From positions 1-54,184 of IMG/VR virus record IMGVR_UViG_3300025168_000114: DNA of 54,184 nt; one strand, 5' to 3'. Source of the DNA: a virus (taxonomy: Duplodnaviria; Caudoviricetes). Under the pieces are notes generated by a model. It was not told the origin of the DNA. It searched no databases and saw nothing but the letters and a program-made list of their open reading frames with translations. Shown in pieces: positions 8,135 through 35,874 of this stretch. The stretch's first letter is position 1, and each line of letters begins with the position of its first letter. Made by a program: the position numbers and the translations under genes.

Positions 8135-8569
8135 ATGCCCCTCTATGACACGGAGTGTTCAGGATGTGGCTTGGTGGACGAGTACTTCTGCTCCCTCGAG
8201 GGGCACAAAGAACTCCAAGCAGGAAAAGTCAGTTGCGAGTGTGGAGGTTATCTTAGTATTTTGATACGACCTGTAATGTTCGTAGGGCCTCGATGCGACC
8301 GCCCGCTTACTATACCTAACGCAGGCAAGTCTTTCACAGACCCTGGCCAACTACGGGAATGGCAAAAGGCTAACCCAGAGCAGCAAATCTATGGACCTAA
8401 CGATAAGATTTGGCAGCACGAGAAAGAGAAACTCGAAGACAAAGTAACTAAAAAACTGCAAAAGAAGGGTTACCGAGATAGACATCATTACAGTGAATCA
8501 AGAAAGTCCGAGATGAAGCGCAAGGCCCTAGTTAACTCCGGTGAGGCCGGGGTCAAGAAGTTCTTTTAG
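8135..8569 (+). CDS. FmdB-like zinc-ribbon protein
   Basis: MPLYDTECSGCG...CECGG; such genes often lie between portal and scaffold. Confidence 0.7.
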   Translation: MPLYDTECSGCGLVDEYFCSLEGHKELQAGKVSCECGGYLSILIRPVMFVGPRCDRPLTIPNAGKSFTDPGQLREWQKANPEQQIYGPNDKIWQHEKEKLEDKVTKKLQKKGYRDRHHYSESRKSEMKRKALVNSGEAGVKKFF

Positions 8570-9489: not shown

Positions 9490-10557
9490 ATGGCTATAAG
9501 CCCAGACGTTCTTGCTTCTACCCTAACGGACCTGCTTCCGGGGTATAGTGAGACATTTACAAAGTGGCATCCGCTTCTCGACGCAATCGTGACGGGTGGT
9601 AATCTCAGCAAAAAGAAACTTGAGGGTCCTTCCCGCGAGTTCACCGTCGTAACAGGCGGTCCTGGACAAGTTACTCACATTCAAAGTGGTAACGAGGTCA
9701 TCAACGGTGGTCGTAAGCAGCTTGCTGTTCGCGGTAACGAAGTTGCACCTCGCTTGATCTACGCGTTTGACGTGCCCCGTAAGGACATGGCAGAAGCGAA
9801 TGGTAAGCAAGACCTTGCTAAACTAATCAAAACATACCCAGAGCGTGCTCTTCATGACTTCTACGAGATGCTTTCACAGCAACTCGCAGTTGGTGATGGC
9901 GCAAACGGCGTTGGCGGTTTCTTAACCCTCAATGGTGGTGCTACATACAACCCAGATGGCGGTACAGCACGCCAAGGCCTCCTAGAGGCTTCTGCTACTG
10001 CGACTGCTAACCCAGTTCACGGTTTAGCAGGTACTACAACCCCAGGCTGGCAAAACCAATTCGCAACTACTACTGGTTTCAGTGTAGATGGCGTTCGCAA
10101 GATGCGCGAAGTTTACTTCAAGTGTCAACGTGAAGGTCGTGTGGCTGACGGTACTGTTGACATGATGTTCGGTGATGAGGTTTCTTTCCTCAACTACATG
10201 GACAGCTTGCAAGAGCACGTCCGTACTGGTCACATCGAGTCTACAGACGGTAAGAACTACGGTCGTCAATCAATTAAGTTTGTCGATTCTGACTTCTACC
10301 TTGAAGACTCAATCGATCTAACTAAACTATCCGGCACTGCGGCGGACGGTTGTATTTATATGCTCAACTCATCTTCCTTTGAAGCGTTTACCCTCGGGCA
10401 AAACGCAGCTATGGAAGGAAAGGGCTTCTTCGACCAAGGTGCGCCAATGCGTATTCCTGATCTTGATGCTTACCGCTACGAGCTTATCCTTTATTTCGGT
10501 CTACATACTGTTCAGCGTCGTGCTAACGGTATCGTAACCGGCACAGCACTGAGCTAG
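9490..10557 (+). CDS. Major capsid protein
   Basis: 355 aa after the scaffold; highly expressed-type codon usage; HK97-like layout ending CIYMLNS...RRANGIV. Confidence 0.85.
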   Translation: MAISPDVLASTLTDLLPGYSETFTKWHPLLDAIVTGGNLSKKKLEGPSREFTVVTGGPGQVTHIQSGNEVINGGRKQLAVRGNEVAPRLIYAFDVPRKDMAEANGKQDLAKLIKTYPERALHDFYEMLSQQLAVGDGANGVGGFLTLNGGATYNPDGGTARQGLLEASATATANPVHGLAGTTTPGWQNQFATTTGFSVDGVRKMREVYFKCQREGRVADGTVDMMFGDEVSFLNYMDSLQEHVRTGHIESTDGKNYGRQSIKFVDSDFYLEDSIDLTKLSGTAADGCIYMLNSSSFEAFTLGQNAAMEGKGFFDQGAPMRIPDLDAYRYELILYFGLHTVQRRANGIVTGTALS

Positions 10558-17329: not shown

Positions 17330-19240
17330 ATGGCTATTGACTGGAAAGAACGCGATCTTACGATTGAGAGGAGACTAGCCGAGTTCGAGGCAAAGGCCCA
17401 AGAACGTCGCGAAGAGGCTGCAAGAAAAGTTGAGCAGGAGGCGGCGGCAGCCCAACGGAAAGCCTCGCAAGAAGCAGCACAGCCTGAGGTAGTTGTTGAA
17501 GAGGAAGTGGAAACTCCCGACAGTGATATGCCTTTGGTCCACCCTAACGACCCTAACTACACCAGTGACCCAGATAGCCCTTACTGGGCTGGAATGGTAA
17601 CTGGCGGACCTGCGTACTCAGGAGAAGAAACTGAAGTAAAGGGTAAGGGAGAGGGAGAGGGAGAGGATGGGCCTCTGATGAAGGGGAGTCTGTATGCTAC
17701 CCATGGAATTGCCAACAGTCAAAGAGTCATCGAGGGAGAACCAACTTTAGACGAGTATTTAGCCGCACTAAAGGTAGAGAAGCCAGTTAAGTGGGAGGTA
17801 AGCGGAACTGCAGAAATGCGGGACGCAAAGCACAGAAATCCCAAGTGGGACGAGTACTACAGGGCCCAAAATACCATTGGTAAGTATGAGCAGGAGCGGG
17901 TAGAGGCTGCGGCGGCTAAAGTAGCAGAACAGTACGATGTCAGGGAGGATGGTACGGCGGTTAATTGGATTAGCAGACCTGAACGCCCCGTAGGCTTCTG
18001 GAACGACTGGATAGGAACAATAGCCACTCTTGGTTTTATCAAACGCGAGGGGCCAGAGTGGGATGCATACTTGAATTTTCACAAACGAAAAGGCGAGAGG
18101 TATTGGGCAATACAAAACGCTAAAAAGGCTGAGAGTGAGCGTATAAGAAAAGAGGCGCAGGCTGAGTTCGCATCCGCTAATACAGACATTGAAGGCCTGA
18201 CGGACCACTTCCGTAGGACTACGGAAGCAGGCTATGGTGGGCCTCCGATATCCTATGAAGACCGTATAGACGCTAAAAGTGATTACGAGAAATCCTTAGA
18301 AGAAGCGGCTCAGGGTGCCCCAGTGTCAAAGATGACTCCTGACGTTCCTGAGGGTAGAGCAGACGTAGAATTGGACAAAGATCAGTACATTCGCGGCGGA
18401 GAGTTCGACAAAGATCAGTACGTTTACGACACACGGGCGGGAGTACCTTCTCCCAACCCCAAGACCGATACCCCAGAACAAACAGCCGCTTGGGATACTT
18501 ATATGCAGGCCATCGCTGACGGTGACTTGGACGATCAATTTGAGGCTTCTCATGCAGTACGGAGAGCGTTCGGCAGGCCAGTCTTCTCTCAGGAGAAGGC
18601 AGAGGCGGGGGCTTCTGACAGTCCTACTGAGGAGTCCGAAGCACCAGTCATTGATAAGGCCTCAGAAAGGCCTTATAAGAAGGCTGCAGAGGCTTACATA
18701 GGGCCTATGCAAAAGATAGAAAGTTTCGGAGGAAAGTCCGACGCTAGTAATCCAATATCCTCGGCGTATGGGGCATCTCAGTTCACTAAAGGTACTTGGA
18801 TAGGTATGATCAAGAAGTACCGCCCAGACTTGATGGAAGGAAGAACTAAGGAAGAAGTTCTAGCCATGAGGTCAAACTACAAATTAGACTATGAGATGGT
18901 AACAAGGTTTACAGAGGAGAACGCAGCCAAGTTAGACAGGCTTGGACACCCTCTGACTAGAAGAAATCTCTACTTGATGCACTTCGCTGGCTCTAATGCT
19001 GCACCTAAACTCCTAAACGCCCCAGAGGGAGATAAAGCAAGCAATTATGTAAACTCAAAATCCCAGAAGTCCAACCCTAGTGTATTTTGGTACGGGGCCA
19101 GAAAGAAGGATAAAAATGGGAAAACGGTATACTACTACGAGGGCAAGCAAAAGTACCCGGTATGGATACACGCGCACAATCCTCCTAAGTATAAAAGTGT
19201 TAAGGAAGTATTAGACTGGGCAGAAAATAAAATGGGATAA
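17330..19240 (+). CDS. Virion/ejection protein with C-terminal lytic transglycosylase (lysozyme-like) domain
   Basis: IESFGG catalytic Glu, SSAYGASQFTKGTW and LYLMHFAG motifs. Confidence 0.8.
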   Translation: MAIDWKERDLTIERRLAEFEAKAQERREEAARKVEQEAAAAQRKASQEAAQPEVVVEEEVETPDSDMPLVHPNDPNYTSDPDSPYWAGMVTGGPAYSGEETEVKGKGEGEGEDGPLMKGSLYATHGIANSQRVIEGEPTLDEYLAALKVEKPVKWEVSGTAEMRDAKHRNPKWDEYYRAQNTIGKYEQERVEAAAAKVAEQYDVREDGTAVNWISRPERPVGFWNDWIGTIATLGFIKREGPEWDAYLNFHKRKGERYWAIQNAKKAESERIRKEAQAEFASANTDIEGLTDHFRRTTEAGYGGPPISYEDRIDAKSDYEKSLEEAAQGAPVSKMTPDVPEGRADVELDKDQYIRGGEFDKDQYVYDTRAGVPSPNPKTDTPEQTAAWDTYMQAIADGDLDDQFEASHAVRRAFGRPVFSQEKAEAGASDSPTEESEAPVIDKASERPYKKAAEAYIGPMQKIESFGGKSDASNPISSAYGASQFTKGTWIGMIKKYRPDLMEGRTKEEVLAMRSNYKLDYEMVTRFTEENAAKLDRLGHPLTRRNLYLMHFAGSNAAPKLLNAPEGDKASNYVNSKSQKSNPSVFWYGARKKDKNGKTVYYYEGKQKYPVWIHAHNPPKYKSVKEVLDWAENKMG

Positions 19241-21942: not shown

Positions 21943-24900
21943 ATGTCTAAAGCGTTGTCCGACCAGTTAAGGCTAATCCGAAAGCGTCGAAGTGCCCTAG
22001 ACGCTGGGGATATGGACGAATACCGCAGACTTTCTTCGGACTCTTACAAACTCAATGATGAGGAGGAGGTTGATACCGACCTTGATACCGACCTTGATGC
22101 CACAGACGTTGAGCCTACTGATACTGAACCTGTCGTCGAAGAGGTGAGTTCGGAGGAGGTTCCTTCCTCTTTCCCTCCTGCCGAGCCCTCTTCGACGACC
22201 TCTCTTACTCCAGTTCCGCCTCCCTCAGTAGACCGGTTGGAGACAGGTGAGATCCCTGGAGAAGGATCACCTACCTTTACCGAACTAGCGGAGTCTGAGG
22301 GCGCGGGAGCGTTTCGTACCGCCTTCGCAGGGTTCCAAGATTTTTTATTAGACAATGCAAGAGAGGGCGGCGAAAGGTCTGCTAAACCGCTCGATGAGCA
22401 GCGCGGCGAGATAGCCCTAGGGCAGATGGGGAACGCAGCGATTGCAGGCCTGTTGGCTTCATACTCAAATCCTTGGAGTGCAACCGCAATGGCCCTAATT
22501 GCACTTTACCCATCAATGCTAAAACTTTCGGACGATGTACTCGACACGGACTTTGGGGAGAGAGGAGTAGGCTTTGGTGGAGATCCCCTAGACCCTACTC
22601 AGTGGCTCGGGGGTTTGTTCCTTCCTAGGACTGTTGCGCAGGAACTGCAAGACCATAAAGACCATAAGATACTCAATAGTTACCCTTCAGATTCACCCGA
22701 GGCTCTTGCTGCAGCAGAGCGTTTAAAAGTTTCGGAAAGGTCCTCTTTAATCGTAGAGGCTGTGCAATCGAACAACCCTGGAGAGGTTGCCTCGGGATAC
22801 ACGAACGATAGAGCCTACGCGGGGGACTTTTCAAAGGCTGCCGAGAACCAACCTGCAGGCTCAGACCGTCAAATAAAACTGCTGACTATGGGGACGGACC
22901 TAGCCACAGCAAACGAGGCTGTTAGAGACAGATTTTCTGGGCTTATAGACCGAGACAAAATTTCTCCTATCTTCCTGCAGACAGACCTTATGGGACGTGG
23001 GGGAGAGTCTGGAGTAAATATCTCAAAGACTGTACGACAACTGAGGGCCCTAACCATAGACAGAATGCGCAAAGAGGACCCTAGCCTAAGTGCAGATGAG
23101 ATAAGGGAAAAGGCCGCAAGGTTTGTTAGTAAGGAGGTACAGGCAGCATTAGGAGGCCATCCCTTCGCTCAAAGTTACCCCATCATTGATATTGGGAATG
23201 ACGATGCCATAGAAGAACTTATGGAGATGGACGAAGTCTGGGGTGACAACTACGGAGAATTGGGGGCGTTAGTCGCTCAGTCCTTACAGCCTTTCTCGGC
23301 GGTCATGACTCCTACCAAACTGTCCGAAAAGAAGACCCTACTCAGCCCTGAGCAGATTTCTACGGAATCTACACTCATGTCTGGCGCACGCCTTGCGAAT
23401 ATAGCCGCCTCTACTATGATAGCGGCTGGGGCTAAGTTTGACTACTACCCTGTCGTAGGGCCTTGGCTTGCTAAAATGGGAATCATTGATCCCGATAGTG
23501 CTGCGCCTGCTGACCCCGAAGAAGTCCTGCGGTGGCTATCTGAGGGTGGAGATGCGATAGATGCGGCCCCTCACTTCGCTAGGGCTGTGTATGATCATAT
23601 GTATCCCGACTTCGTCCCAGGCTCTGATACATGGAACGAGTATGCGGCAGTAGCGATGAAGAAGTACCCTTTATGGTTCCAAGGTGTACCTATTCTATCC
23701 ACTATGCTCTTTGAGCCAGATCCTATATCAGTGGCGATGGGCCCCTTAGGAAAATTCGCCAAGATGGTAGGAAAAAGTGTGAAGCTTCAGAAGCTCTATA
23801 AGTTTCAGCGAATCCTACAAGAGGATGCTATCCCCAAACTGAAGGCGTTAGAGAATGAACTCGACCCTTATGTTGTAAAAGGGCATGACGCTGAAGGTAA
23901 CCCTATTCAGATGTACAAGGATATACCCCCCGAACTAGAAGCCCAGCAGGCCGAGAAAATTGAGCGTGTAGTCAAAGAAATTTTAGACGGTGCCTCGGAT
24001 GACCCAGAACTTCAGCAGGTGCTTCAACTTAATATCCTAAGGAACCTAAAGGCGAACACGGCTACTGGAGTAAAAGAGCAATGGCAAGCCTCAGTCAAGG
24101 CACGCAGGGCACTTAAGGACCTAAAAGCCAAAACCACTAAGGAGTCGGGGGACGCAGAGAAGGCACTTGGGCTAGAGCTACGGTCGCTAGAGTCAACAAG
24201 TAAGGCGGCGGATGCCGCTTTAGACCTCACCACAAATAAGTTAAGAAGTGTAGCGCAGGGGCTCAGAGGGGTTATGCCCGAGTTTTTTGAGGCAGAAAAA
24301 CTTAATACTAAAGCGGTCAATGCCCTTAGTCGCAAGGGATTGCAGACGACTATCGAAAAGGCCACCCAAAAGGCTTTAGATGCCACAAAAGAGTATGAAG
24401 AAATAATCTTTAATAGCAAACAGGTCCTCGAACAAGAGGCTTCGTTATTCGCACGCCTACAAGCGCAGAAGGCCTTACTAGAACAAGCGCAGCAGATCGC
24501 TAGAGCAGGACTGAGAATAAATGACGAAGTTGTCGTACAGATAGGAGAGGCCCCCATAAAAGGGAAGTTCCTACGGTATGAGGCAGTGGATGCTCTGGAG
24601 AAAGGCCCAAAAAGAGCCTTTATCCAGTTAGCAACAAAAGACGGCCCCGTAGTAAGGCACTACGACCCTAAAGATGTGAGGTTCGATTACGACGGGGTAA
24701 TTAACAGATTAAACCCTAGGCACGGTAAGCCTGTGTCTACGCTGGGCAAACAATTCCGAATACTTGCTAAGGAGTTCTTCTTCGGAGAGATAAAGGGGGA
24801 TTTTAAGGCGGCGGACGGCTCTATCTGGGTTCCAGCTCGCGGCTTAGAGAGCCTAAAAGAGGGTCAAATTGTACGGTGGTTGGACGGCGGAGAACTGAAG

Positions 24901-27900
24901 TCCATCGAAGAGATGACAGTCAAGACCAAAGGAACCTTAGAAGACGGCACTGATACGGCTACCATTTTCGCAGGCAAGAAGAGGAAGCCTAGCATGACGG
25001 TCACTGTGCCGCTAGACCAAGTCTACACCCTCAAGCACCGGGACGTAGAGGCACAACTGGATGTCATAGTCGAACTAACAGAGGCAAGAGCGGTGGCTTC
25101 CGCTATGCACCGAGGCGAAGAAGCCACTGAAGCGGCTATCAACGCATGGTATGCGCGTAACTTCAAGGGCTTCGCAAGAGACTTAAAGGGTGAGGTTAAG
25201 CCATTAGTTGAGGGAGATGAAGTAGCGGCTCAAGGTGACGTACTCGATGATATTATGTATCAGGGGCCTGCCACAGCAGGTGCCGCTACAGCAGAAGAAG
25301 CAGTAGAAGCAGCACGCTTATGGAAAGAACTAGGTACGGAGAGCCCTTACTTCAAGAAATGGTTTGGGGATTCTAAGGCCGTAGACTTCTTTGGAAAGCC
25401 TCTATCGGTGTTTCACGGGACCTCAAAAGGAGGCTTCACTGAATTTGCCAGAGAAGAGGGCATGATCCACTTCTTTACTCGCGACAGAGGTCAAGCCTCT
25501 ACCTATGCCTATGGGGATGCTGCCATAGACCTATCAGAGGGCCGCAGGAAGAAAAGACAACGCGGAATCTATGACGTGTACCTTAGACTTAGGAACCCGC
25601 TAGTAGTAGAGTACTCGGGCAGAAGATGGGACGATCCTCGGAGGCATGACTTCGGTCAGGGCCCAGAGGAGTTCGACAACATAGAAGACTTAGCAGAAGC
25701 GGCCCGTGATGCAGGGTACGACGGTGTTATAGCGCAAAATATCATAGACTACGGAGAGTTTAAGACAAAAGCGGTGGACGAGGCGGTGGACCAAACCAAG
25801 CCTACGACTGAGTATCTTGTCTTTGACCCGGAGAACATCAAGTCTACGGCCAACAGAGGCACCTTCGATGAGACTGGGAGACTGCTCTTCCAAGGCGCAG
25901 ACGAACCCGCTTCTGTAGATGATATCGTTAAGGTACTCTTCCAAGAGGGAGATGAGGGTGCCAGAATGCCGTGGGAGCGCGGTGACCCAACTACAAGGGT
26001 CCCAGAACTAACCGCTGCGGCAAAGAAGATTCTAGCGGGAACTGCAGACGCGCCAACTCGTGCTGAGTACCAAAAGTTAATAGACGAGTACAAACCTGTT
26101 TACCCCTATACATCTGTCCCTGCGCCTGCTACTAGGGCGGACATGGTCCGTGGTTTGAGCGCGTCCGATAAAAAGAAAGTGGAAAAAATAGACGGAGCGG
26201 CTAACCTCGAAGCTGGCACTGTAGTTGGATTGCGCTTGGATATCCCCGCGTATAAGCGTGAGAAAGTGTGGGTCCCTACGATCCATAGGAGGGCTACAGT
26301 CATAGGCCACCAAGCAGCGGCGGCAGTGGACAACGTAAAACTTACTATGGGTGGAACGACTGCGCTAAAGATAGCCGCAGGGGAAATAGCCAAGACACCC
26401 TTTGCGACGATTAAAGGGGGATGGTCCCCTGCAACTACCGAAGATCTCGTAGCAGAGGCTGAGGCAGCCTTAAAGAGTGACGACTGGGTGCAGGTGGGCA
26501 TGGACCCCGAGAGGCATTCTTTCTTCTACGACAGGAAGACACAGCAACCCTTGGGGTCAGCAGACAGGGTTATCCAGATTGGACCTCTAGTTCTTGCGAA
26601 GAATGCGAAGCCCTTAGATCCTAAGCTAGAAGCAAGACTCCTATACCAAACCGAAGAAGAATCAGCCAAAGCCGCTGTTCAATTTGTCGAAGACAACAAG
26701 GCTATCCTGTATGCATTCGAGCAGGCTGATGTATCTTCCCTACTTCATGAGATTGGCCATGTGTTCCGTAGAGACTTGTTGAGGTCTGGTTGGCAGGGCA
26801 AACTGGACTCGGATGTCTTAGTTCGGGCCTTTACTACTAAGGATGAACGCCACATAGGCGACACGGTAACTTTTGATGGCGGTGAGGGTGTCGGTTGGAC
26901 GGACCTAACAAAAGCCGGTAAGACAAGAACCCCAGAGGAAATGGATAAAATTCAGGGTAAGCGGAGCCGTAAGCGGAAAGCCGCGTTAGATAAGAGAGCC
27001 AGAGGGTTAGAGGACCAGAGCGGTCCTGCCACTTGGACAGTGAAATCTGAAGAGCGTTTCACTCGTGCAATGGAGAAGTACCTAGCCACGGGCAGGTCCC
27101 CTTCCCTTGAACTTGACGGCGTGTTTAAGAAGTTCAAGTCATGGATGACTGAGATCTATGTTAAGATTCGAAACTCCGCTATTGGTCGGGACGTACCTAA
27201 GGAAGTCCGTGAAGTCTTTGACCGTATGCTTACAGGGGCAATGACTACTGAAGGCTATAGTTCTAAAAACTTCAATAAAGCCCGACTTAAGGCTATGCTA
27301 GACTCAAGAGGCATCCTCTATAAGAGTAAGGACACTAAAAAAGTCCTTGCTAAGAAACTTGCTGACGATGACCTGAACAGGACTGCAGAATACCGCAGAT
27401 TCAGTAAGCGTCGGGAGGACATGGCCAAGCAGGCCGCAGAGCTGGCTAATAAGACTCCCCAGGCGGTGGCTAAGAAACTCGCCCCCGGCTTGTCTGCACT
27501 GGTCAAGGGTATGGAAGACGAGTTGAAGCCTTTAACTACTGAAAGTAACAAGGTTCAGAATAAAGTCCTGTCCAAACTTGAGAAGTTTGATGCAGCGCGT
27601 AAAAAGCGTAATAAGGCTAAACAGAAACTTGCCCTCCGCGTTGCCTATGAAGCACAAAAAGTAGCAAAGAAACTCGTGAAGGATAAGCATGGAGAACTAA
27701 TTGAGTTTACAGGTAAAGCCTCCACCGCTGAAGCGCACCTAGACAAGCAACTCGCTAAGATTGACGCGGCGAGCAAAAAGATTAACGGGTCAAATAAAGT
27801 TCAAGATGTCAGGCTCGCTGTAGAAGAACTTAACGCACTGGCCGAACTTATGCGGGTGGAGGGCAAACTCCGTCCTGCTAGAAGGAATCTACTGAAGCAT

Positions 27901-30900
27901 CCTATACTTAAGTCAGTAATACGAGATCGGGCTAACGATAACTGGATAGTTGACCCCAAAGAGTTTGTGGACGCTATAGACGAGTTCTATGTTCCAGGAG
28001 CACTGGACGAGTTCTTGGCTACTCCCGAGGGTGCCTACCTCGAACCTATTGTAAAGGTGGCGAGAGAGGGAGGCCCTAGACTAACCTATAACAACGACCA
28101 GATGAAAGCGTTACAGCTAGGCATAAAGAAGATGGAGGACGCTTATCGGGAGGGCCACCTTGCCCAAGGTGCGAGGGCTATGTACGACCAAATGTGGAGA
28201 TCCTTTAGGTCTGGCAACTTCAAGACGGTAAGGGTTCCGGTCCCGTTCTCTAACATGGTAAAGGCTGAGGGAGTTCAAGTAGGAGTGTCTGGTTCCGCAA
28301 CTAGGTTCTTCTGGAATCTGTACAAAAAGTGGGACCCTGCTTACTCTAAGTACGGGGAGTTGTCCAAGCAGTTAGCGAAAAATGCTTCGAGGCATGAAAG
28401 ATTCTTAGAGCACGCTATGGGGGATCTCCATAATGTCAACATGACTAACTTAGACGGAGACTACTTAGCCGCACACATCCGATACATGGACACTACTGAG
28501 GCCATAGACGGCAGGTACGGTAGTACTATGGTAAACACTCTAGGGGATGGGATGTTCAAGGAAGCACAGTCTTTCTTGAAGGCGAACATAACGACAACTC
28601 CTAAGGGTAAATTAATCTTATCCAACGACTTTGCAGGAGATTACACCGAAGGTTTGATTAGGGCCTTGGAGCGTACTTTCCTCCCCTCACCTAAGTTTAA
28701 ACTTCAACCTCGTATCTCAGAGGCAGCGTCCAAAAGGCTAAGACCAAAGGTGTTGGAGTTGCTCTCTGATGACGGCATGACCTACGATAAGTTCTTGCGG
28801 GAGCTTGCGAAAGCCTCCAATAGAACTAAGTTTGGCCGTCAGGATGTTCGAGGCATTACAATGGCATCCCGAGCCCTGATTGACGCGGCGGCATGGCAGC
28901 ATACCATCAGGGCTATAGCGAACACCAGTAGCGCGATGCTAACTCCCAAAGAAGCATTGCAGATGACTAACTTCATGGCAGGGGAGATGGACAAAGTCGA
29001 TGACGTAGCGGCACTATGGGCGGCTGCTGGGAAACTAGGGATGGACTTGTCCGAGGCCACGGTACGCCCCGGTGTCAGGCACGGCCAGTCCGAGCAGGCG
29101 CGTGTCAAGAACCTCGTTAGGTGGAACCTCGATGATGGTAAGATCCTTAATCCTGAAGAACTTGTCGAACACAATGCTAAGTTAGAGGCTAAACTAACGG
29201 CCCAAGGACTCACTCCCGAGCAGATTACCCCGCTGCTCGCAGCTAGCGGAGTTAAGGTCACGGACCCTCGTCAAGTATTTATTCCCGAACAGATGGGACA
29301 ATCTTTGGCAGAGGGTAACGCTAAGTTTATTAAGGAATTAGACGTTTATTACTCAGCCCCTAAAGGGTTCGACCCTCAAAGGTCTATACAAAAGTACGTC
29401 CGTATGTGGAAAGGGCTGATCACCTCAGGCTTAGGCCTGCCTCGCCCTAAATACTATGTTAACAACATGGTAGGTGACTTCAGCCAGATATGGCAGACTC
29501 ACGGCCTTTCCACTGCGGTTAAGGTAAGTAGTCAAAATGTAGTGACAAATATACCCTACGTCGGCCCTCGTATTCAGAATGTCACATCTAAGATGTCCGA
29601 GAAGTTTGGAGGAGTTCCAGTACTGGGGACTGCAGTAGAGGCCATATTCAATCCAAACATTGGCCGCATCTTCAAGGGCGAAGAGGGCGTTATTAAGGTC
29701 GGAGACGAAACTATCTCGCTGTCTACTCTAAGGGAGCGGCTTGCCCTAGACGGAGTGCTCGATACGTTCACTGCACGGGAGGTGATGGCTAATATAGATG
29801 ATGCTGCGTCAGAGCTTATTGGGGTTATGCAAAAGCAGTCAGGCCTAAAGATGTCGGATAAAGTAAAAGCACATTTTACGAGAAAGGTAAAATCTGACCT
29901 AGATGCGTTTGCTATGCAAGTGCAGCAGCGTCAACGTGTAGGACTGTACCTCGAACTGCGCAAGCAGGGACTAAACCATGACGGCGCGGTAAAGGGAGTG
30001 AAGGACGCTTTGTATGACTGGAGTGGAGGATTTTCAAAATGGGAGCAGGGCTGGGTGATGGGCCTCTTTATGCCGTTCTACCGCTTCTGGAAACTCGCAG
30101 CCAAACAAATGCTACAGGCTGGTATGGAACCTTTTGTCATGGACAGCGGGGAGTATATGCTAAAAGCCATGACTGGACAAACTCAACTAGCGCGAATGAG
30201 AGCACAGTCTCGGATTCTCGCGGGAGTGCCGACATGGGCTGCCTACCAAGAGGCAGAAGAGGCTGAGGAAGGAAAAGCAAGCGCGGCATTCGAGGCCTCT
30301 ATACTATCTAGCCCTTGGTGGAAACGTCCCGGTATGACATCTTGGGGCAAGGCTATGACCGAAGATCAAAAGTACTTTATGCTAAAGCACACAGGCCGTA
30401 AGACAGATACTATTGCAACTGCGATGTCTTCTCCTATGACATCCGCAGAGATGTACTCTATAGCTGGATACGTTTCAACCTCGCTGCTTGCGGCGGCTAG
30501 GGCTGCCGGATCCGAGGATGAAGTGTTTAATGGGCTACGCGCTTGGGAGCAGTTTAAGAAGTACTCAACGGACATAGGCGGACCAGTGGTAGAGGGGCTC
30601 ATTGGCGAGAGGCGTACAGCAAAGTCTGGGTATAGGCGCATAAGTCCTGGCCAAGAGTCAGCACTTAAACTCTTCGGGGACTTCGCTCAAATCCACCATG
30701 ACGAAGACGGAAGGCTGGTAGCCAATAACATGGCTGTCACTATACTTGACCATCTTCCCATACTCAGTTCTCAATGGTCTGATACTGCGAACGGCTGGAA
30801 ATGGAGCCAACTGTTCCACGGAGAGGAGGAAGTTCTTAAGCGTTTCCTCTACACACTAGGCCACATCTCAGGCCCTGTCCGCGACTATCCTTCGGATACA

Positions 30901-31020
30901 CAAGCCACATTGTACTACGCCCTCAAAAAGATAGACGACAAATTGAAGAAGGCTACGGAAGAAGCCAAAGTAGGGAAAGACCCGATGGATAGGTACATTA
31001 AACTTAACGAACTTGATTAA
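21943..31020 (+). CDS. Giant polyvalent internal virion protein (ADP-ribosyltransferase domain, zincin metallopeptidase-like domain, HeH motif, helical C-terminal ejection region)
   Basis: 3025 aa; FKKWFGDSK...FHGT...FFT...GYDGVI...EYLVFDPENIKS (ART-PolyVal-like); LLHEIGH...EERF...FKKFKSW zincin; C-terminal ALYDW...MPFYRFW. Confidence 0.8.
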   Translation: MSKALSDQLRLIRKRRSALDAGDMDEYRRLSSDSYKLNDEEEVDTDLDTDLDATDVEPTDTEPVVEEVSSEEVPSSFPPAEPSSTTSLTPVPPPSVDRLETGEIPGEGSPTFTELAESEGAGAFRTAFAGFQDFLLDNAREGGERSAKPLDEQRGEIALGQMGNAAIAGLLASYSNPWSATAMALIALYPSMLKLSDDVLDTDFGERGVGFGGDPLDPTQWLGGLFLPRTVAQELQDHKDHKILNSYPSDSPEALAAAERLKVSERSSLIVEAVQSNNPGEVASGYTNDRAYAGDFSKAAENQPAGSDRQIKLLTMGTDLATANEAVRDRFSGLIDRDKISPIFLQTDLMGRGGESGVNISKTVRQLRALTIDRMRKEDPSLSADEIREKAARFVSKEVQAALGGHPFAQSYPIIDIGNDDAIEELMEMDEVWGDNYGELGALVAQSLQPFSAVMTPTKLSEKKTLLSPEQISTESTLMSGARLANIAASTMIAAGAKFDYYPVVGPWLAKMGIIDPDSAAPADPEEVLRWLSEGGDAIDAAPHFARAVYDHMYPDFVPGSDTWNEYAAVAMKKYPLWFQGVPILSTMLFEPDPISVAMGPLGKFAKMVGKSVKLQKLYKFQRILQEDAIPKLKALENELDPYVVKGHDAEGNPIQMYKDIPPELEAQQAEKIERVVKEILDGASDDPELQQVLQLNILRNLKANTATGVKEQWQASVKARRALKDLKAKTTKESGDAEKALGLELRSLESTSKAADAALDLTTNKLRSVAQGLRGVMPEFFEAEKLNTKAVNALSRKGLQTTIEKATQKALDATKEYEEIIFNSKQVLEQEASLFARLQAQKALLEQAQQIARAGLRINDEVVVQIGEAPIKGKFLRYEAVDALEKGPKRAFIQLATKDGPVVRHYDPKDVRFDYDGVINRLNPRHGKPVSTLGKQFRILAKEFFFGEIKGDFKAADGSIWVPARGLESLKEGQIVRWLDGGELKSIEEMTVKTKGTLEDGTDTATIFAGKKRKPSMTVTVPLDQVYTLKHRDVEAQLDVIVELTEARAVASAMHRGEEATEAAINAWYARNFKGFARDLKGEVKPLVEGDEVAAQGDVLDDIMYQGPATAGAATAEEAVEAARLWKELGTESPYFKKWFGDSKAVDFFGKPLSVFHGTSKGGFTEFAREEGMIHFFTRDRGQASTYAYGDAAIDLSEGRRKKRQRGIYDVYLRLRNPLVVEYSGRRWDDPRRHDFGQGPEEFDNIEDLAEAARDAGYDGVIAQNIIDYGEFKTKAVDEAVDQTKPTTEYLVFDPENIKSTANRGTFDETGRLLFQGADEPASVDDIVKVLFQEGDEGARMPWERGDPTTRVPELTAAAKKILAGTADAPTRAEYQKLIDEYKPVYPYTSVPAPATRADMVRGLSASDKKKVEKIDGAANLEAGTVVGLRLDIPAYKREKVWVPTIHRRATVIGHQAAAAVDNVKLTMGGTTALKIAAGEIAKTPFATIKGGWSPATTEDLVAEAEAALKSDDWVQVGMDPERHSFFYDRKTQQPLGSADRVIQIGPLVLAKNAKPLDPKLEARLLYQTEEESAKAAVQFVEDNKAILYAFEQADVSSLLHEIGHVFRRDLLRSGWQGKLDSDVLVRAFTTKDERHIGDTVTFDGGEGVGWTDLTKAGKTRTPEEMDKIQGKRSRKRKAALDKRARGLEDQSGPATWTVKSEERFTRAMEKYLATGRSPSLELDGVFKKFKSWMTEIYVKIRNSAIGRDVPKEVREVFDRMLTGAMTTEGYSSKNFNKARLKAMLDSRGILYKSKDTKKVLAKKLADDDLNRTAEYRRFSKRREDMAKQAAELANKTPQAVAKKLAPGLSALVKGMEDELKPLTTESNKVQNKVLSKLEKFDAARKKRNKAKQKLALRVAYEAQKVAKKLVKDKHGELIEFTGKASTAEAHLDKQLAKIDAASKKINGSNKVQDVRLAVEELNALAELMRVEGKLRPARRNLLKHPILKSVIRDRANDNWIVDPKEFVDAIDEFYVPGALDEFLATPEGAYLEPIVKVAREGGPRLTYNNDQMKALQLGIKKMEDAYREGHLAQGARAMYDQMWRSFRSGNFKTVRVPVPFSNMVKAEGVQVGVSGSATRFFWNLYKKWDPAYSKYGELSKQLAKNASRHERFLEHAMGDLHNVNMTNLDGDYLAAHIRYMDTTEAIDGRYGSTMVNTLGDGMFKEAQSFLKANITTTPKGKLILSNDFAGDYTEGLIRALERTFLPSPKFKLQPRISEAASKRLRPKVLELLSDDGMTYDKFLRELAKASNRTKFGRQDVRGITMASRALIDAAAWQHTIRAIANTSSAMLTPKEALQMTNFMAGEMDKVDDVAALWAAAGKLGMDLSEATVRPGVRHGQSEQARVKNLVRWNLDDGKILNPEELVEHNAKLEAKLTAQGLTPEQITPLLAASGVKVTDPRQVFIPEQMGQSLAEGNAKFIKELDVYYSAPKGFDPQRSIQKYVRMWKGLITSGLGLPRPKYYVNNMVGDFSQIWQTHGLSTAVKVSSQNVVTNIPYVGPRIQNVTSKMSEKFGGVPVLGTAVEAIFNPNIGRIFKGEEGVIKVGDETISLSTLRERLALDGVLDTFTAREVMANIDDAASELIGVMQKQSGLKMSDKVKAHFTRKVKSDLDAFAMQVQQRQRVGLYLELRKQGLNHDGAVKGVKDALYDWSGGFSKWEQGWVMGLFMPFYRFWKLAAKQMLQAGMEPFVMDSGEYMLKAMTGQTQLARMRAQSRILAGVPTWAAYQEAEEAEEGKASAAFEASILSSPWWKRPGMTSWGKAMTEDQKYFMLKHTGRKTDTIATAMSSPMTSAEMYSIAGYVSTSLLAAARAAGSEDEVFNGLRAWEQFKKYSTDIGGPVVEGLIGERRTAKSGYRRISPGQESALKLFGDFAQIHHDEDGRLVANNMAVTILDHLPILSSQWSDTANGWKWSQLFHGEEEVLKRFLYTLGHISGPVRDYPSDTQATLYYALKKIDDKLKKATEEAKVGKDPMDRYIKLNELD

Positions 31021-31100
31021 TTATGTGAGGTGGGTTACACCTTCAGCAGCCCCTAAGGGCAAAATCACTCAATAGGCCATAGGCCACCAGGAGTCACGAG

Positions 31101-31724
31101 ATGGGATCAGTCAATCCAAAATGGATAAACGCAGTTCAAAACCTTCCTTACGCGGAACGTCAACGAGTCACTAACTCTTCAGGATCAGAGATTGCCAAGT
31201 ACGCACTTGTCGAAATTGCTCCTAGTGGAACTGACGGAAACTATGGCAAGATCGCTGCAGCAGACCCTACTGCGCCCTCAGGGCACGGTAAACTCGGCAT
31301 CTGCCTTTACAAAACTATAGACGGCGCACGTACTGACATTGCTCCTTGGGCAATCATTCGTGACGTTAACACATCAGCCGCAACTACTGTTGGCGACCCT
31401 ATCTACCTTGCCGCATCTGGCGCATGGTCCGTTACCGCCACGGCTGCGCGGCGTGTCGTAGGCAGAGTACTTAAGAAGGACGCTACTGAAGGCGTGGTTC
31501 TACTTTCCCCGAGCACAGAGCAATCATCACTTATCGTAAGCGGTAAGGTGACCCTTAGCACTGGGGCAGCAACCGTTGCCCTCGGCACAGCGATGGCAGG
31601 GGCAACCGTTATTACCTCTGCTGCTACAGCAGGTAGCACAGCGACAGTCCACGCCTCAACAGGTGTGATGACGGTTGCGGGCACTGGCTCAGAAGTTGTT
31701 AGTTACATTGCTGACGGACGCTAG
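31101..31724 (+). CDS. Putative capsid decoration/fibre protein
   Basis: Ala/Thr/Gly-rich; VGDPIYLAASG...VVGRV pattern like cement proteins; AGGAG RBS. Confidence 0.55.
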   Translation: MGSVNPKWINAVQNLPYAERQRVTNSSGSEIAKYALVEIAPSGTDGNYGKIAAADPTAPSGHGKLGICLYKTIDGARTDIAPWAIIRDVNTSAATTVGDPIYLAASGAWSVTATAARRVVGRVLKKDATEGVVLLSPSTEQSSLIVSGKVTLSTGAATVALGTAMAGATVITSAATAGSTATVHASTGVMTVAGTGSEVVSYIADGR

Positions 31725-31726
31725 AA

Positions 31727-32167
31727 ATGCCCGTTGCTTTAGCAAAACGTACTTATGTGCTGACTCGGAGTGCTAGTACAATTGGGGAAACTGACTCAGT
31801 TGCCCTGACTGGACTAGGCCAAACGGGCAACATCGTTAAGTTCTCGATTAGACTGGACGTTACTAGCGACCGCGCTAGTGCAGGCATACTGTACATCGCA
31901 GACGCTCCAATCGCGTCCACAGCCTCCATAGCCAGCAAGGACCTTGTCTACCAGTCTGGGACTATAACCAGTCTTGTAGGCAGTGCTACTGCTGTGGCTT
32001 CTGCAAACGCATCGGGTGGTCTGGCAACGACGGAACTACCTAAGGGCCAGCCTTATGTGCTTAAAGGTACTCTACCGCTTAACGCTAAATTTAAAATCAC
32101 TGCGAGGACTGGTAGTGCATCAGCCTCCGTACTTTACTTAACTATATGGGCGGAAGTTCGCTCATAG
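31727..32167 (+). CDS. Putative virion beta-sandwich protein
   Basis: Ser/Thr/Ala-rich 146 aa ORF in the late operon. Confidence 0.5.
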   Translation: MPVALAKRTYVLTRSASTIGETDSVALTGLGQTGNIVKFSIRLDVTSDRASAGILYIADAPIASTASIASKDLVYQSGTITSLVGSATAVASANASGGLATTELPKGQPYVLKGTLPLNAKFKITARTGSASASVLYLTIWAEVRS

Positions 32168-32176
32168 GAGAATGAT

Positions 32177-32524
32177 ATGCCAGGATTAAACGAAATGCGA
32201 GACGAGGCTCTCAGCAAGTATGATGATGACCTCAATGAGATTGAAGCCCCAGAAGGTATGCACGAGATGCCTGACGGCGAGATGATGGCTGATGCCGAGA
32301 TGGAGGGCATGGAAGAAGAGGGTGCACCTGCTGCTGGCCCAGAGGGGATGGTCTCCGACATGATGATGAAAGCCGGTATCGAAGCTTCTCCAGAGCAAAT
32401 CTCAGAGTTCATGGGCCTTCTACAAGGTGCTGCTGAAGAGGCTATGGCCGCTGAAGGTGGCGGTGCTATGGAAGCTGAGGGTGCTGAGATGGGTGCTGAG
32501 ATGGCCGAAGAGCCTATGGTCTAG
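32177..32524 (+). CDS. Acidic Met/Glu-rich protein with HEMPDGEMM motif and degenerate shared tag
   Basis: AGGAG RBS; low-complexity M/E/A/G composition. Confidence 0.65.
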   Translation: MPGLNEMRDEALSKYDDDLNEIEAPEGMHEMPDGEMMADAEMEGMEEEGAPAAGPEGMVSDMMMKAGIEASPEQISEFMGLLQGAAEEAMAAEGGGAMEAEGAEMGAEMAEEPMV

Positions 32525-32535
32525 GAGGCTAGACT

Positions 32536-32787
32536 GTGGACCCTTTATCCACTGAGACACTAGAGATCCTCAGAATAATCGATACGTTCGGTTATTCTGG
32601 GGTTCTGGCCGTTGCCGCGATCTGGATCTCCCGTGTAGGCAAGAAAGCCTGTGAGCACATCCAGAACTTAGACCTAGGCCCTATCACCTTAGATGTCAAC
32701 CTGCGCCTCGAAGAGAGTGAGATTGACCAACTGCAGCGCAGGCTGAGTGAGGCTGAAGAGCGTCTTCTAGGTAAGAAGGAAGACTAA
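32536..32787 (+). CDS. Small membrane protein with C-terminal coiled coil
   Basis: Hydrophobic FGYSGVLAVAAIWI segment followed by heptad helix; GGAGG RBS. Confidence 0.55.
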   Translation: MDPLSTETLEILRIIDTFGYSGVLAVAAIWISRVGKKACEHIQNLDLGPITLDVNLRLEESEIDQLQRRLSEAEERLLGKKED

Positions 32788-32803
32788 ACCCGAGGGAGTT
32801 ACT

Positions 32804-33229
32804 ATGAGTGAGAAAGAAAACAATCCTAGGTTCTCCGCCGCGTTCTTGGCTGAGGAGGCGGAGGCTAAGAAAGACCCCGGCTGGGCCAAGGCGCACTACC
32901 AGATGAACCTTCTGGGTCCGAGAGAACCCAAACGCTTTAACTCCTATAAAGAACTGTCTCCACAGGAAGTTAGTCGAATAGCGCAAACGTGGGTCCTGAA
33001 TGACAATGACCGCCACCTGTATACCGAAATTACTGATTGGCCTAGCCTTAGGCGGCGGCTCGACGCTGAACTAAGGCAGCGGAGCGACCCACAGGCCGTG
33101 GAAAAAGCTGGGATGTTTGAAGAAGAAACTCCTATGAAGAAGGACAAGGATAAGCGTACCCTCTCCAGCCAGAGAAATGAGTACATAGACAAGACCTACG
33201 ATGAGGACTTGAACAAGAAGGAAGACTAA
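32804..33229 (+). CDS. Hypothetical protein with C-terminal shared tag
   Basis: Ends TLSSQRNEYIDKTYDEDLNKKED; GGGAG RBS. Confidence 0.7.
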   Translation: MSEKENNPRFSAAFLAEEAEAKKDPGWAKAHYQMNLLGPREPKRFNSYKELSPQEVSRIAQTWVLNDNDRHLYTEITDWPSLRRRLDAELRQRSDPQAVEKAGMFEEETPMKKDKDKRTLSSQRNEYIDKTYDEDLNKKED

Positions 33230-33576
33230 TGGCAACGCTTGCTAACAAACGCAATAAGTATCTCGACAAGACTTACAACAGTGACTTAAGCAAAAAGGTT
33301 AAGTCGTCAGTCAAACGGGCGGGAGTGTCGGGAGTTAATGACCCTAAGCGTACACCTAGTCATCCTAAGAAGAGCCATGTCGTCGTTGCAAAAGAAGGCA
33401 GCAAGGTCAAGACCATCCGGTTCGGGGAGCAGGGAGCCAGTACAGCAGGCAAGCCTAAGAAGGGGGAGTCCGACAAAATGAAGAAGAAGCGCAAGTCCTT
33501 CAAGTCCCGACATGGTAAGAACATCAAGAAGGGTAAGATGAGCGCAGCCTACTGGGCAGACAAAGAGAAGTGGTAA
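33229..33576 (+). CDS. Highly basic putative DNA-binding virion protein with N-terminal shared tag
   Basis: KKSHVVVAKEG...IRFG...RKSFKSRH...SAAYWA pattern recurrent in small basic viral proteins. Confidence 0.7.
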   Translation: MATLANKRNKYLDKTYNSDLSKKVKSSVKRAGVSGVNDPKRTPSHPKKSHVVVAKEGSKVKTIRFGEQGASTAGKPKKGESDKMKKKRKSFKSRHGKNIKKGKMSAAYWADKEKW

Positions 33577-33585
33577 GGAGTTATC

Positions 33586-33699
33586 ATGAAGTCCCTCTCC
33601 AAGAAAAGAAATGAGTACTTAGACAAGACCTATGACAAGGACTTGAAGAAAAAGAAGAAGTCCTCTAAGAAGAAGAAGTCTTCTAAGAAGAAGTACTAG
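33586..33699 (+). CDS. 37 aa poly-Lys peptide with shared tag (absent from the ORF track)
   Basis: AAGGAG RBS; MKSLSKKRNEYLDKTYDKDLKKKKKSSKKKKSSKKKY*; fills the gap between neighbours exactly. Confidence 0.8.
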   Translation: MKSLSKKRNEYLDKTYDKDLKKKKKSSKKKKSSKKKY

Positions 33700-34734
33700 A
33701 TGCCTACTCTCGCCAACAAACGTAACGAATACTTAGACAAGACTTATGATAAGGACTTGAAGCCTTTAGGTCCTGTAGAGGAAGAGGAAGAGCACACTGG
33801 TCCTCCGTTCACCTCCTTTGATCCCGAAGGCGAGGGCTACGATTACAAGACTGCTGAAGCGGCTGGACTTTCAGCGGACGAAACAGGGCATTGGCCGAGC
33901 CGAGTCCCAAGCACAGGTCAGATCCTCAAGGGGCAGAGTCATCCTACCTACCACCTAACCACCCAGGGGGAGGCAGACGCAGGGCACACCATTACTAAGG
34001 GTGCTGACGGGAAGTACTACTCCTACTCCTCAGTGGAGCCCGAGGAGTATAAGGCTGACGCTCCGGTTAAGGGGGTAGAGTCCCATCAGCGGTCGGGGGC
34101 GGCAATAATCGACCCCAATGACTCACTCCAGAACAGGACTGCCATCGATGGGAACACTTACGGAGTAGGTGACTACGTTGAGGGCCTCGGGAACATAGAA
34201 GACATTGACCAGTATGGTAACCCTACCATCCTCCCTGATGACCCAGAGCAGCCTGCCTACAGGCTAGGGCAGAGCGAAGTGGGACCAGAGGGTAAAGCGG
34301 AAGAGCCTGAGGAAGAGATAGCGGCAGGTAAGTTCCATGATGACGAAGAGATTGGTCTAGGGGAGTTGATATCTTGGATGCTGCCTTCCCCTGCTTGGAT
34401 GAAGCCTGGAGTGTCCTATCAGGGAGAGGAGCCTGATGAAGAGGACGCGCTGGCATGGATTAAAGACAACAGTCGTCCCATAGAGCCTGAAGAGGAAGAG
34501 CTACAGCATATGGTCGATAACGTGTATGCGGGCCTAACAGACGATCAAGTGAGTGATGCAGTAGAGAAAGACCATAACGACTCCACCGCCATTGACGGTA
34601 CATACTCTTCCAATGAAGATGGGTCGTGGACTCAGGACTATACTCGCCCCGATGGGCAGACGATTACTCTAAAGGGCTACGGTGAGGGAGACGACGAGTA
34701 TGCCACAGCGAATGTCACTGGGCTGTACCAGTAA
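33700..34734 (+). CDS. Acidic multidomain hypothetical protein with N-terminal shared tag
   Basis: MPTLANKRNEYLDKTYDKDL, then a GYDY...HWPSR...ILKG..HPT domain and acidic regions. Confidence 0.7.
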   Translation: MPTLANKRNEYLDKTYDKDLKPLGPVEEEEEHTGPPFTSFDPEGEGYDYKTAEAAGLSADETGHWPSRVPSTGQILKGQSHPTYHLTTQGEADAGHTITKGADGKYYSYSSVEPEEYKADAPVKGVESHQRSGAAIIDPNDSLQNRTAIDGNTYGVGDYVEGLGNIEDIDQYGNPTILPDDPEQPAYRLGQSEVGPEGKAEEPEEEIAAGKFHDDEEIGLGELISWMLPSPAWMKPGVSYQGEEPDEEDALAWIKDNSRPIEPEEEELQHMVDNVYAGLTDDQVSDAVEKDHNDSTAIDGTYSSNEDGSWTQDYTRPDGQTITLKGYGEGDDEYATANVTGLYQ

Positions 34735-34737
34735 GAA

Positions 34738-34791
34738 GACTAGGGGCTCAAGTGAGCGGGAAGGCAGGAAAACGCCCACGAACCCCTAGTC
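34738..34791. terminator. Long hairpin at the convergence of the two arms; probable terminator
   Basis: GACTAGGGG (34738-46) pairs with CCCCTAGTC (34783-91) with further imperfect inner pairing; U-tracts are weak. Confidence 0.55.
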
Positions 34792-34800
34792 ACTTGTCTT

Positions 34801-35874
34801 CTAACTCTCCCGAGCAGCAAGGGCAACGTGCTCCCACCCTTTTGGCAAGCCTTTTTTAAACTCACACGTTTGGATAATCACCATACAACGTGCGTGGTCT
34901 AGGCTTTTCGCTATACCGGCAGCCACTTCTGAGGTCAGCCCCCGGTCAGGAAGTACTACAGCAATGCGACTGTTACGCTGTATTTCTGCCACGGCACAGC
35001 CAATGGCAGCCGCGATACGGGCAGTCTCAGAGCCGCTAGAGGCAGGCACCAGTACCTTATCCTGCAGCCACCTACCGATAGTAGGAGTCTTGCCTGCTTC
35101 GATACGAACGCAGAGGTCAGGCACACCTTCAATCTTAGTGAGGTAACTGTTGATAGTCTCCTCTGCATGGTTCAAGTAAGTGCGGCAGTTCTCTGACATA
35201 GTATTTACCGCGTCGGCTAGAAGACTCTTAGCCTGTGCGCCCTTGGATACCTCAGCCGCTCTCCTCTCTAGCAGTAGGGGGCGGTTCTGGGAGAACTCAT
35301 CGAACTCATCGATAGTATCGATGGCAATCTCTAGGTTCTTAACCTTAGTAGATGACTCTCTCTTCAGTGAGCTCAGCATAGTTACAGCAGCGAAGAAGCG
35401 TTCGTAAGCGGTCTTCTGAGGCATACGCGACACAAAGGTCGCTAACTCCCCCCGAAGGTCGCTCAGGAGCCTCTCAGCGTCTTCCTGAGGCAATAGGTTC
35501 TGGTACAGGAATGTGTAGAACTTAATAGGAGACGAGGCCATGAACCCGTATACCTCAGGCACGATGAATCTGTACAGAGGGGCAGTGCCCTCACGCTTGC
35601 CGTCTCTCCACACAGCCTTGGTTCCATCCTCGAAGTGCAGGATAGAGTGTGCGTTCGCTGCACTCGGATGCTTCAGGGACATGACCATGCGCTTGGCCTT
35701 GGCCGCATCCCGTGCCCCGAACTCGTGGGCCTCCCCGCTTAATGCCAGTTGCATAGCGTGGATGATTGTTGTCTTGCCCGAAGCGGGGGGTCCGCTGACG
35801 ACCAGCTTATCTTCTACCGTGTAGGTTTTAGATGCGCTTCGGGTGAGGTTAGTTACTAGTTGAGTTGCCTTCAT
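34801..35874 (-). CDS. SMC/Rad50-like ABC ATPase with short coiled coil
   Basis: Walker A GPPASGKTT...ALSG, signature-like SSGSE, degenerate Walker B VVLPDRG. Confidence 0.65.
   Translation of the reverse strand: MKATQLVTNLTRSASKTYTVEDKLVVSGPPASGKTTIIHAMQLALSGEAHEFGARDAAKAKRMVMSLKHPSAANAHSILHFEDGTKAVWRDGKREGTAPLYRFIVPEVYGFMASSPIKFYTFLYQNLLPQEDAERLLSDLRGELATFVSRMPQKTAYERFFAAVTMLSSLKRESSTKVKNLEIAIDTIDEFDEFSQNRPLLLERRAAEVSKGAQAKSLLADAVNTMSENCRTYLNHAEETINSYLTKIEGVPDLCVRIEAGKTPTIGRWLQDKVLVPASSGSETARIAAAIGCAVAEIQRNSRIAVVLPDRGLTSEVAAGIAKSLDHARCMVIIQTCEFKKGLPKGWEHVALAARES

Follow-up and report, generated by a model that had tools for sequence, protein, structure and literature searches.

The virus record IMGVR_UViG_3300025168_000114 (Duplodnaviria; Caudoviricetes), from an uncultured marine phage, carries, at the end of its late operon, four adjacent plus-strand genes (g1 to g4, positions 32804-34734) whose very different products share an 18-residue peptide at one terminus, referred to here as the tag. 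The window analyzed is this whole record, 54184 bases that CheckV estimates to be 99% complete. Selection has maintained the tag as a peptide, relatives carry it on further unrelated cargos, and its coding DNA is a site of recombination between cassettes. We read the tag as a docking peptide, portable between proteins, through which accessory late proteins are brought to one partner and probably into the virion, and regard this reading as an evenly balanced call.

A terminal peptide shared by four late genes

The consensus of the tag is T-L-A/S-N-K-R-N-E-Y-L-D-K-T-Y-D-E/K-D-L. In g1 (32804-33229), which encodes 141 amino acids with an isoelectric point (pI) of 5.6, the copy is C-terminal; it reads TLSSQRNEYIDKTYDEDL (33158-33211), ends 5 residues before the stop and is followed by NKKED. 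The other three genes carry the tag N-terminally, each time as residues 3-20. The 115-residue product of g2 (33229-33576) is basic (pI 10.5) and consists of the tag TLANKRNKYLDKTYNSDL (33235-33288) and a basic phage protein of ~94 residues. The shortest gene, g3 (33586-33699), encodes a poly-Lys protein of 37 residues (pI 10.3) made up of the tag SLSKKRNEYLDKTYDKDL (33592-33645) and a Lys/Ser tail, and g4 (33700-34734) encodes an acidic protein of 344 residues (pI 4.1) with the copy TLANKRNEYLDKTYDKDL (33706-33759). A KPLGP linker stands behind the N-terminal tags and a KKDKDKR linker ahead of the C-terminal one. Ten columns are invariant among the four copies; the invariant charged or polar positions include R, D, T and D, and Leu and Tyr are invariant as well. 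An earlier sequence-only reading of the window had placed four peptides here, at either terminus of cargos that it called very different, and the frames, positions and pI values agree with it on each point.

The four copies stand alone in the genome. A six-frame regular-expression scan finds them and nothing more, and all four candidates of a profile search of the whole record (4/4) are the four tags. An hmmsearch run without filters on 1559 six-frame segments gives the tags E values of 4.1e-20, 1.5e-16, 1.2e-15 and 3.4e-14, the fifth-best segment E 0.74 and the remainder E values of at least 3.9. The match between the four copies is far beyond chance. A literature search with the 7-residue core of the tag returned 0 papers, which, for a single string and a limited library, is no proof that the motif is undescribed.

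The copies have diverged considerably as DNA. Nucleotide identity between them is 63-83%, and in pairwise comparison synonymous differences per synonymous site (pS) amount to 0.31-1.08 and nonsynonymous differences per nonsynonymous site (pN) to 0.09-0.22, with pN/pS between 0.11 and 0.44 in all 6 of the 6 pairs. Synonymous sites near saturation together with a low pN indicate that selection acts on the amino acid sequence of the tag and that the copies are old. The variation in codons at synonymous positions that the sequence-only reading had pointed out is thereby put into numbers. Such divergence at the synonymous sites speaks, in addition, against an element that works only at the level of DNA or RNA.

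The best match to the tag profile outside the four copies, the segment with E 0.74 (6.2 bits), is the N terminus of an acidic 115-residue protein (pI 4.1) encoded on the plus strand at 32177-32524, two genes upstream of g1. Its first 24 residues (32177-32248), beginning MPGLNEMRDEALSKYDDDLNEI, align with the full length of the profile from the Met on with a one-residue gap, a match that is not significant alone. This N terminus is conserved in two relatives (L012 and L013). It may be a degenerate fifth tag, although the resemblance is suggestive only.

Variable cargos among related phages

The sequence-only reading had pointed to a motif profile scan of databases, and such a scan finds the tag on further unrelated cargos in relatives. 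Against 1.84 billion representative proteins, the profile has 9 matches at E <= 0.001, and a 9-row alignment searched among longer proteins has 17 at E <= 0.01 from 7998 scored candidates. In these carriers the tag is N-terminal in 13 of 17 and C-terminal in 4 of 17. They comprise homologues of g1, g2, g3 and g4 and, in addition, the cargos P0001, P0003, P0004 (with a C-terminal tag) and P0006/P0014. Each of the two positions, C-terminal and N-terminal, is represented by two unrelated cargos. P0003 and P0004 have only the tag in common, and when P0001, P0003, P0004, P0006, P0012 and P0014 are compared with the six-frame translation of the window, they match over the tag and at most a short linker (alignments of no more than 36 residues). 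A word-based search with g4 residues 1-40, directed at shorter proteins, returned P0001 only. Homologues of g1 (P0018 and P0019) are 67% and 74% identical to it overall, and their alignment is invariant from the last ~40 residues (GMFEEE onward) to the K-K-E before the C terminus; the g3 homologue P0005 has 38 residues. The products of g1-g4 and P0001-P0009 have no Pfam match.

One carrier bears directly on how the tag is used. Residues 1-130 of P0012 correspond to the whole of P0001 (88% identity), and its residues 124-329 correspond to residues 44-262 of P0003 (58% identity), which has its own tag in front. P0012 is a single protein and P0001 and P0003 are each tagged, so every separate polypeptide keeps a tag. 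This pattern of split and fused forms is what an addressing function would predict.

The tag also varies in an ordered way among carriers. A variant with KRKEYLDETYD in place of KRNEYLDKTYD, in which the N->K change at position 7 and the K->E change at position 12 occur together, is found in L013, P0007-P0009, P0012, P0014 and P0016, and P0006 has only the first change. The two changes may be a charge-compensating pair.

Five metagenome contigs (L010-L014) hold the locus, and their gene content differs. In L012 and L013, the gene of an 83-residue protein that precedes g1 in the window is followed directly by the g4 homologue, its stop overlapping the next start, and g1, g2 and g3 are absent. 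The blastn alignments of L010-L013 skip from window position 33769 to 34036; these relatives are without the insert in g4 (33770-34035, plus strand), a domain of ~70-90 residues with the sequence GHWPSR that sits right behind the tag and a short linker. In L014, an unrelated open reading frame (ORF) precedes g2 and g4 is deleted. The L014 ORF matches ART-PolyVal at E 2.9e-6 and 28.5 bits, under the cut-off of 31.2, and is truncated by the contig end. The g4 gene is the only tagged gene present in all relatives seen at the locus except L014.

At the L014 junction stands a recombinant tag; toward the 5' end it is identical to the window's g3/g4 junction, and toward the 3' end it is identical to the tag of g2. 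Insertions and deletions among the relatives are bounded by tags. The late operon ends in a hyperplastic array of cassettes, and the tags of this array double as crossover points. A Shine-Dalgarno-like string or an overlapping stop and start precedes the ATG of each tagged ORF, AAGGAG in the case of g3, and we read the unit of exchange as ribosome site or stop, ATG, tag and cargo.

Contigs of close relatives (L010-L014 and L099-L101) tend to end within or beside the tagged locus, as though assembly failed at its variability. When the convergent ATPase next to the locus was used as an IMG/VR query, it gave 3 loci, which end within ~400 bases of the tagged locus. The contig ends leave the impression, formed without a control count, of a variable, repeat-bounded region. 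Other IMG/VR queries gave 0 matches for each of two back-translated tag patterns and 0 confirmed loci each for the C terminus of the giant late protein encoded upstream and for a 207-residue protein encoded just after it.

A proposed docking role, its probable destination and competing explanations

As a docking peptide, the tag would work as follows. Each separately translated accessory protein would present it on a free terminus via a short flexible linker, and one common receptor would read all copies. The receptor would most likely belong to the particle during its assembly. Cargos of several kinds, small basic and acidic ones among them, would be incorporated and then delivered with the DNA and a giant polyvalent protein. 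The coding DNA of the tag would double as a homology patch through which cassettes could be gained, lost and swapped between related phages; with a tag at every cassette boundary to give homology, the locus would become hyperplastic.

In a genome that is 99% complete, neither Peptidase_S78 nor a ClpP-type protease has a match. The tag would therefore probably stay on its cargo instead of being cleaved by a prohead protease, although a divergent enzyme may be present. PHROG matches of 29 scanned late ORFs include no protease. A Peptidase_S77 search of the genome gave no match, its control being likewise silent.

The sequence-only reading had proposed a portable addressing peptide that loads accessory proteins into the procapsid or onto a common partner. 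Portability and selection on the peptide hold, given the pN/pS values, the unrelated cargos and the split and fused forms. We infer the common partner and the destination in the virion, and for the procapsid the case is circumstantial, resting on the position of the locus after a polyvalent gene, on cargo families that occur in head gene clusters and on a parallel leader in another lineage.

The first of these points concerns a late protein of 3025 residues (21943-31020, plus strand), ~1.8 kb upstream of the tagged genes. Its residues 1151-1307 are an ART-PolyVal domain (Pfam PF18760; E 2.1e-15, 58.2 bits, cut-off 31.2), which places it among the polyvalent proteins. Its translation shows a HEIGH motif downstream of ART-PolyVal, and no peptidase family is matched despite that motif. 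Most of the 3025-residue protein is without any family match.

The second point comes from two cargo families found in other phages. Residues 22-115 of g2 (33292-33573) match phrog_7595 at E 9.3e-40, and residues 43-115 match weakly (E 1e-4) positions 534-604 of the 1338-position phrog_220, annotated as minor head protein and DNA pilot. In cyanophage KBS-S-2A, the gene of the basic protein is flanked by those of the minor head protein and the coat protein. The family is very widespread, with 8000 of 8000 scored candidates at E <= 1e-5. The members listed are mostly 93-105 residues long, untagged, 70-90% identical and located on contigs of 0.5 to 160 kb. The N-terminal extension is the variable part of the family. 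An assignment of the window to HMO-2011-type phages was dropped; its sole basis was this widespread basic domain. The second family is the GHWPSR domain inserted in g4, which in the T7-like phage MedDCM-OCT-S45-C18 forms an ORF of its own, with the scaffold gene on one side and the capsid gene on the other. With g4 as the IMG/VR query, 2 loci were found (L004 and L005), which share the inserted GHWPSR domain only; in L004 it is the N terminus of a 622-residue protein in a structural gene cluster. The L004 protein starts (3953-4050) with two tandem copies of a motif of ~14 residues (F-N/D-P-L-D/K-Y-G-T-P-V and onward). The g1 and g4 proteins and the other cargos have no family match, g1 in neither PHROG nor Pfam.

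The third point is a different leader on the same basic protein. In a survey of 80 IMG/VR loci with the basic protein, in which the other mechanically called ORFs of at least 50 residues were counted, five loci (L015, L016, L018, L020 and L021) carry it with the N-terminal leader M-K-x-F-K-x-F/Y-x-x-E. The records of these five, 9-23% complete by CheckV estimate, are pieces of much larger marine phage genomes. Their leader is similar to the T4 capsid-targeting sequence (CTS) as quoted in the part of PMC8442874 consulted. It occurs on 12 of 158 other ORFs in the five leader loci versus 2 of 1327 in 59 loci whose basic protein is leaderless; 16 further loci, in which the basic ORF was not recognized by the pattern and 19 of 317 ORFs have the leader, were left out of the contrast. 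In L021 (3376-8175), five consecutive genes have the leader, including those of a cytidyltransferase and a phosphohydrolase. Consecutive genes that share the leader are unrelated to one another, and besides these two enzymes they encode, among others, the basic protein and a 606-residue orphan. That one cargo family stands in tag-sharing arrays of two lineages with two unrelated tags favors an addressing role. A tblastn search with the L021 phosphohydrolase found homologues that begin only at residue 16-19 and is uninformative on the leader, and an S77 protease search of the leader-bearing phages gave no match, with the control silent too. Tag regular expressions find nothing around the basic-protein genes of CRP-207, CRP-1 and HMO-2011.

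Encapsulin cargo-loading peptides are short, terminal and found on unrelated cargos, and they dock inside an HK97-fold shell. The tag is like them in being a short terminal peptide on unrelated cargos. The window differs from an encapsulin in coming from a tailed phage: one operon holds its matches to terminase, portal, cement and transglycosylase.

The two closest parallels in logic come from phages T4 and P1. The internal proteins of T4 are a diverse set with the CTS as the only conserved part, and foreign proteins fused to the CTS become encapsidated, according to the part of PMC8442874 consulted. In T4 as in the window, a short terminal peptide is the sole common element of diverse small proteins, basic and acidic ones among them, that are encoded together at a variable locus. 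The differences are also clear. There is no sequence similarity; the tag has 18 residues versus ~10 and is C-terminal in one of four copies; a leader of the T4 kind is seen only in the loci of other phages; and the window has a portal-scaffold-capsid gene order without a T4-like core. By sequence, length and position, the tag does not belong to the T4 CTS, and the likeness lies in logic. In phage P1, an N-terminal stretch of DarB of more than 9 and at most 30 residues suffices to send a reporter into the capsid (PMC9024508, in the part consulted). That signal falls into a similar length class, and its cargo is an injected anti-defense protein; it is described on one protein and not on a cassette array.

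Polyvalent systems offer a further comparison. According to the part of PMC5512222 consulted, polyvalent proteins are injected along with the DNA, and small ORFs that have polyvalent-type domains lie beside the large polyvalent gene; that part does not mention a tag of this kind. The window similarly has a giant late ART-PolyVal protein with small neighboring ORFs, and at this locus the relative L014 has an ORF that is ART-PolyVal-like below the cut-off. The domains of polyvalent proteins are covalently joined, whereas here separate proteins share a peptide, which would be a noncovalent route to the same end. A wider proposal builds on this: that tailed phages without a prohead protease use protease-independent peptides, functional at either terminus, to load a changeable set of effector and DNA-binding proteins as a kind of split polyvalent protein, that the DNA of such a tag serves as a recombination site for trade in cargos, and that lineage-specific tags, such as the unrelated leader of the larger marine phages, are a general and hitherto overlooked mark of orphan genes whose proteins are packaged. 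We offer it tentatively and think it somewhat more likely to fail than to hold.

Several observations weigh against the docking reading. Most listed members of the basic family are without any leader, so the family needs no tag in general. The basic protein of Lentibacter phage ICBM2 and of Roseobacter phage CRP-207, which has no tag, is encoded next to lysis genes where the late operon ends, outside a head cluster; the main text of the cobavirus paper has no virion proteomics of this protein. P0001 and P0003 come from short contigs of 1234 and 873 bases. All known carriers belong to one narrow phage lineage, so co-occurrence gives no pointer to the partner. The cargo models are also poor: AlphaFold2 gives g2 a mean predicted local distance difference test score (pLDDT) of 55.4 from 44 sequences, with tag residues 1-16 below 50, and the ESM Atlas models of g4 and g1 reach 0.42 and 0.45. 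Look-ups of g4 and g1 in the ESM Atlas gave no usable feature match, all structure rows having template modeling (TM) scores below 0.5. When the tag was modeled in complex with two proteins, the candidate capsid (9490-10554) and the candidate scaffold (8617-9477), the score was 0.00 against a mark of 0.32 in a run that had no controls; the result counts neither way.

The tag could dock to a partner that is not part of the virion, either a host factor (a chaperone, a protease or the nucleoid) or a late phage complex such as the lysis machinery, in which case it would govern the cargos' timing, location or stability in the infected cell. The tagged genes adjoin the gene of the membrane-type protein of 83 residues, the basic cargo lies beside endolysin genes in other phages, and the invariant charged and polar positions (R, D, T, D), Leu and Tyr would fit any specific linear motif. 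A motif read by a host factor might, however, spread further than one narrow lineage (9 of 1.84 billion representatives), and both the polyvalent gene upstream and the presence of two cargo families in head clusters favor the particle, which makes this explanation unlikely in our view. The tags could also bind each other, forming a homo- or hetero-oligomeric bundle that joins the cargos, perhaps with the acidic protein encoded upstream. This would suit several tagged proteins made from one operon, with their tags on flexible ends, and the coexistence of acidic and basic cargos. We consider it improbable: hydrophobic or aromatic residues occupy only 5 of 18 positions and form no heptad pattern, and L012 and L013 conserve a single clear tag plus at most a degenerate one.

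Two further explanations give the peptide no role of its own. The tag might be mainly a recombination linker, a coding counterpart of the PeSL cassettes of hyperplastic regions in T4-type phages, which would direct the exchange of cassettes to safe sites, with the peptide as a tolerated by-product. In the part of PMC2839356 consulted, these are repeated elements of ~50-100 nt that flank variable ORFs as crossover points, and the tag repeat is alike in flanking variable ORFs and serving as a crossover point. The precedent, the crossover inside the L014 tag, the insertions and deletions bounded by tags, the 15-nt exact repeat that flanks g1 and the tendency of relatives' contigs to end at the locus all fit. 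PeSL is an intergenic promoter with a stem-loop, however, whereas the tag is translated and kept as a peptide. A role at the DNA level predicts conserved nucleotides, yet identity between the copies is 63-83% and synonymous sites are near saturation; the tag is also in frame and terminal at the C terminus of two unrelated cargos. We hold a role mainly in recombination to be decidedly improbable and recombination to be better seen as a consequence of the repeat. As for similarity without function, through recent neutral duplication or chance low complexity, it is hardly credible. The tandem arrangement is all that favors it. The profile separates the tags (E 1e-14 to 1e-20) from the next segment at 0.74, and nearly saturated synonymous sites (pS up to 1.08) with retained residues (pN 0.09-0.22) exclude recent neutral duplication. 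The sequence-only reading had named this as the outcome that would undo it; relatives conserve the tag, also on other cargos, and pN/pS stays at 0.11-0.44.

If the tag is an addressing peptide, it would give a sequence-based handle on orphan genes whose proteins travel with the DNA, the likeliest first actors against host defenses. The principle of capsid targeting seen in T4 and P1 would then reach a podovirus-type genome, with a different peptide that works from either end and apparently needs no cleavage, and one element would make the set of cargos exchangeable by recombination. A short transferable tag would also be a candidate tool with which to load phage particles with proteins. Should the partner not be the particle, the tag is still a clear linear motif shared by a cassette array and would offer a route to that partner.

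The late operon around the tagged genes

From ~4.2 kb to 34.7 kb, the plus strand is a single tightly packed late block. It includes the genes of the terminase large subunit (4217-5980) and the portal (5981-7897), a cement-type protein (PF09956), a transglycosylase-domain protein (17330-19240) and the giant polyvalent-type protein. An acidic protein (8617-9480) is a candidate scaffold by position only, and a capsid-sized protein (9490-10557) is the candidate capsid by gene order only. Between portal and candidate scaffold lies a 144-residue ORF (8135-8569) without a family match, with several Cys-x-x-Cys-type pairs near its N terminus. A tblastn search against cultured phages found no match for g1, the candidate capsid or the candidate scaffold. 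Of the cargos described above, P0004 was also set against the ART region of the giant protein; the best E value, 0.022, is not significant, and P0004 is accordingly not called an ART.

Downstream of the giant gene, the order is 207-residue, 146-residue, acidic 115-residue and 83-residue proteins and then g1-g4, with convergent minus-strand replication genes after them. The tagged genes are probably co-transcribed with the late genes, judging from packing and strand. Within 30900-35000, promoter-like sites (1 found, 2.8 expected) and terminator-like sites (3 found, 3.7 expected) are not above chance. An inverted repeat (I2, 34738-34791) with 12-nt arms that are 92% complementary separates the late operon from the convergent genes; a terminator scan does not call it a terminator.

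The 83-residue protein (32536-32787, plus strand), encoded between the acidic-protein gene and g1, has one hydrophobic segment and a coiled-coil-like tail and ends in ERLLGKKED. A similar C terminus, ERLTGKKE(D/N), is found on the tagged proteins P0003, P0012 and P0014. In the window, a 15-nt exact direct repeat, AAGAAGGAAGACTAA, flanks the g1 cassette (repeat family D3, spacing 442 nt, both copies on the plus strand). Its left copy (32773-32787) encodes KKED and the stop of the 83-residue protein; in the right copy (33215-33229), the TAA overlaps the ATG of g2, and AAGGAAG, a Shine-Dalgarno-like string, lies 5 nt before that ATG. The recurrent K-K-E-D/N C terminus coincides with the AAGGAAG ribosome-site-like string of the next gene, and this overlap may explain why unrelated proteins end alike.

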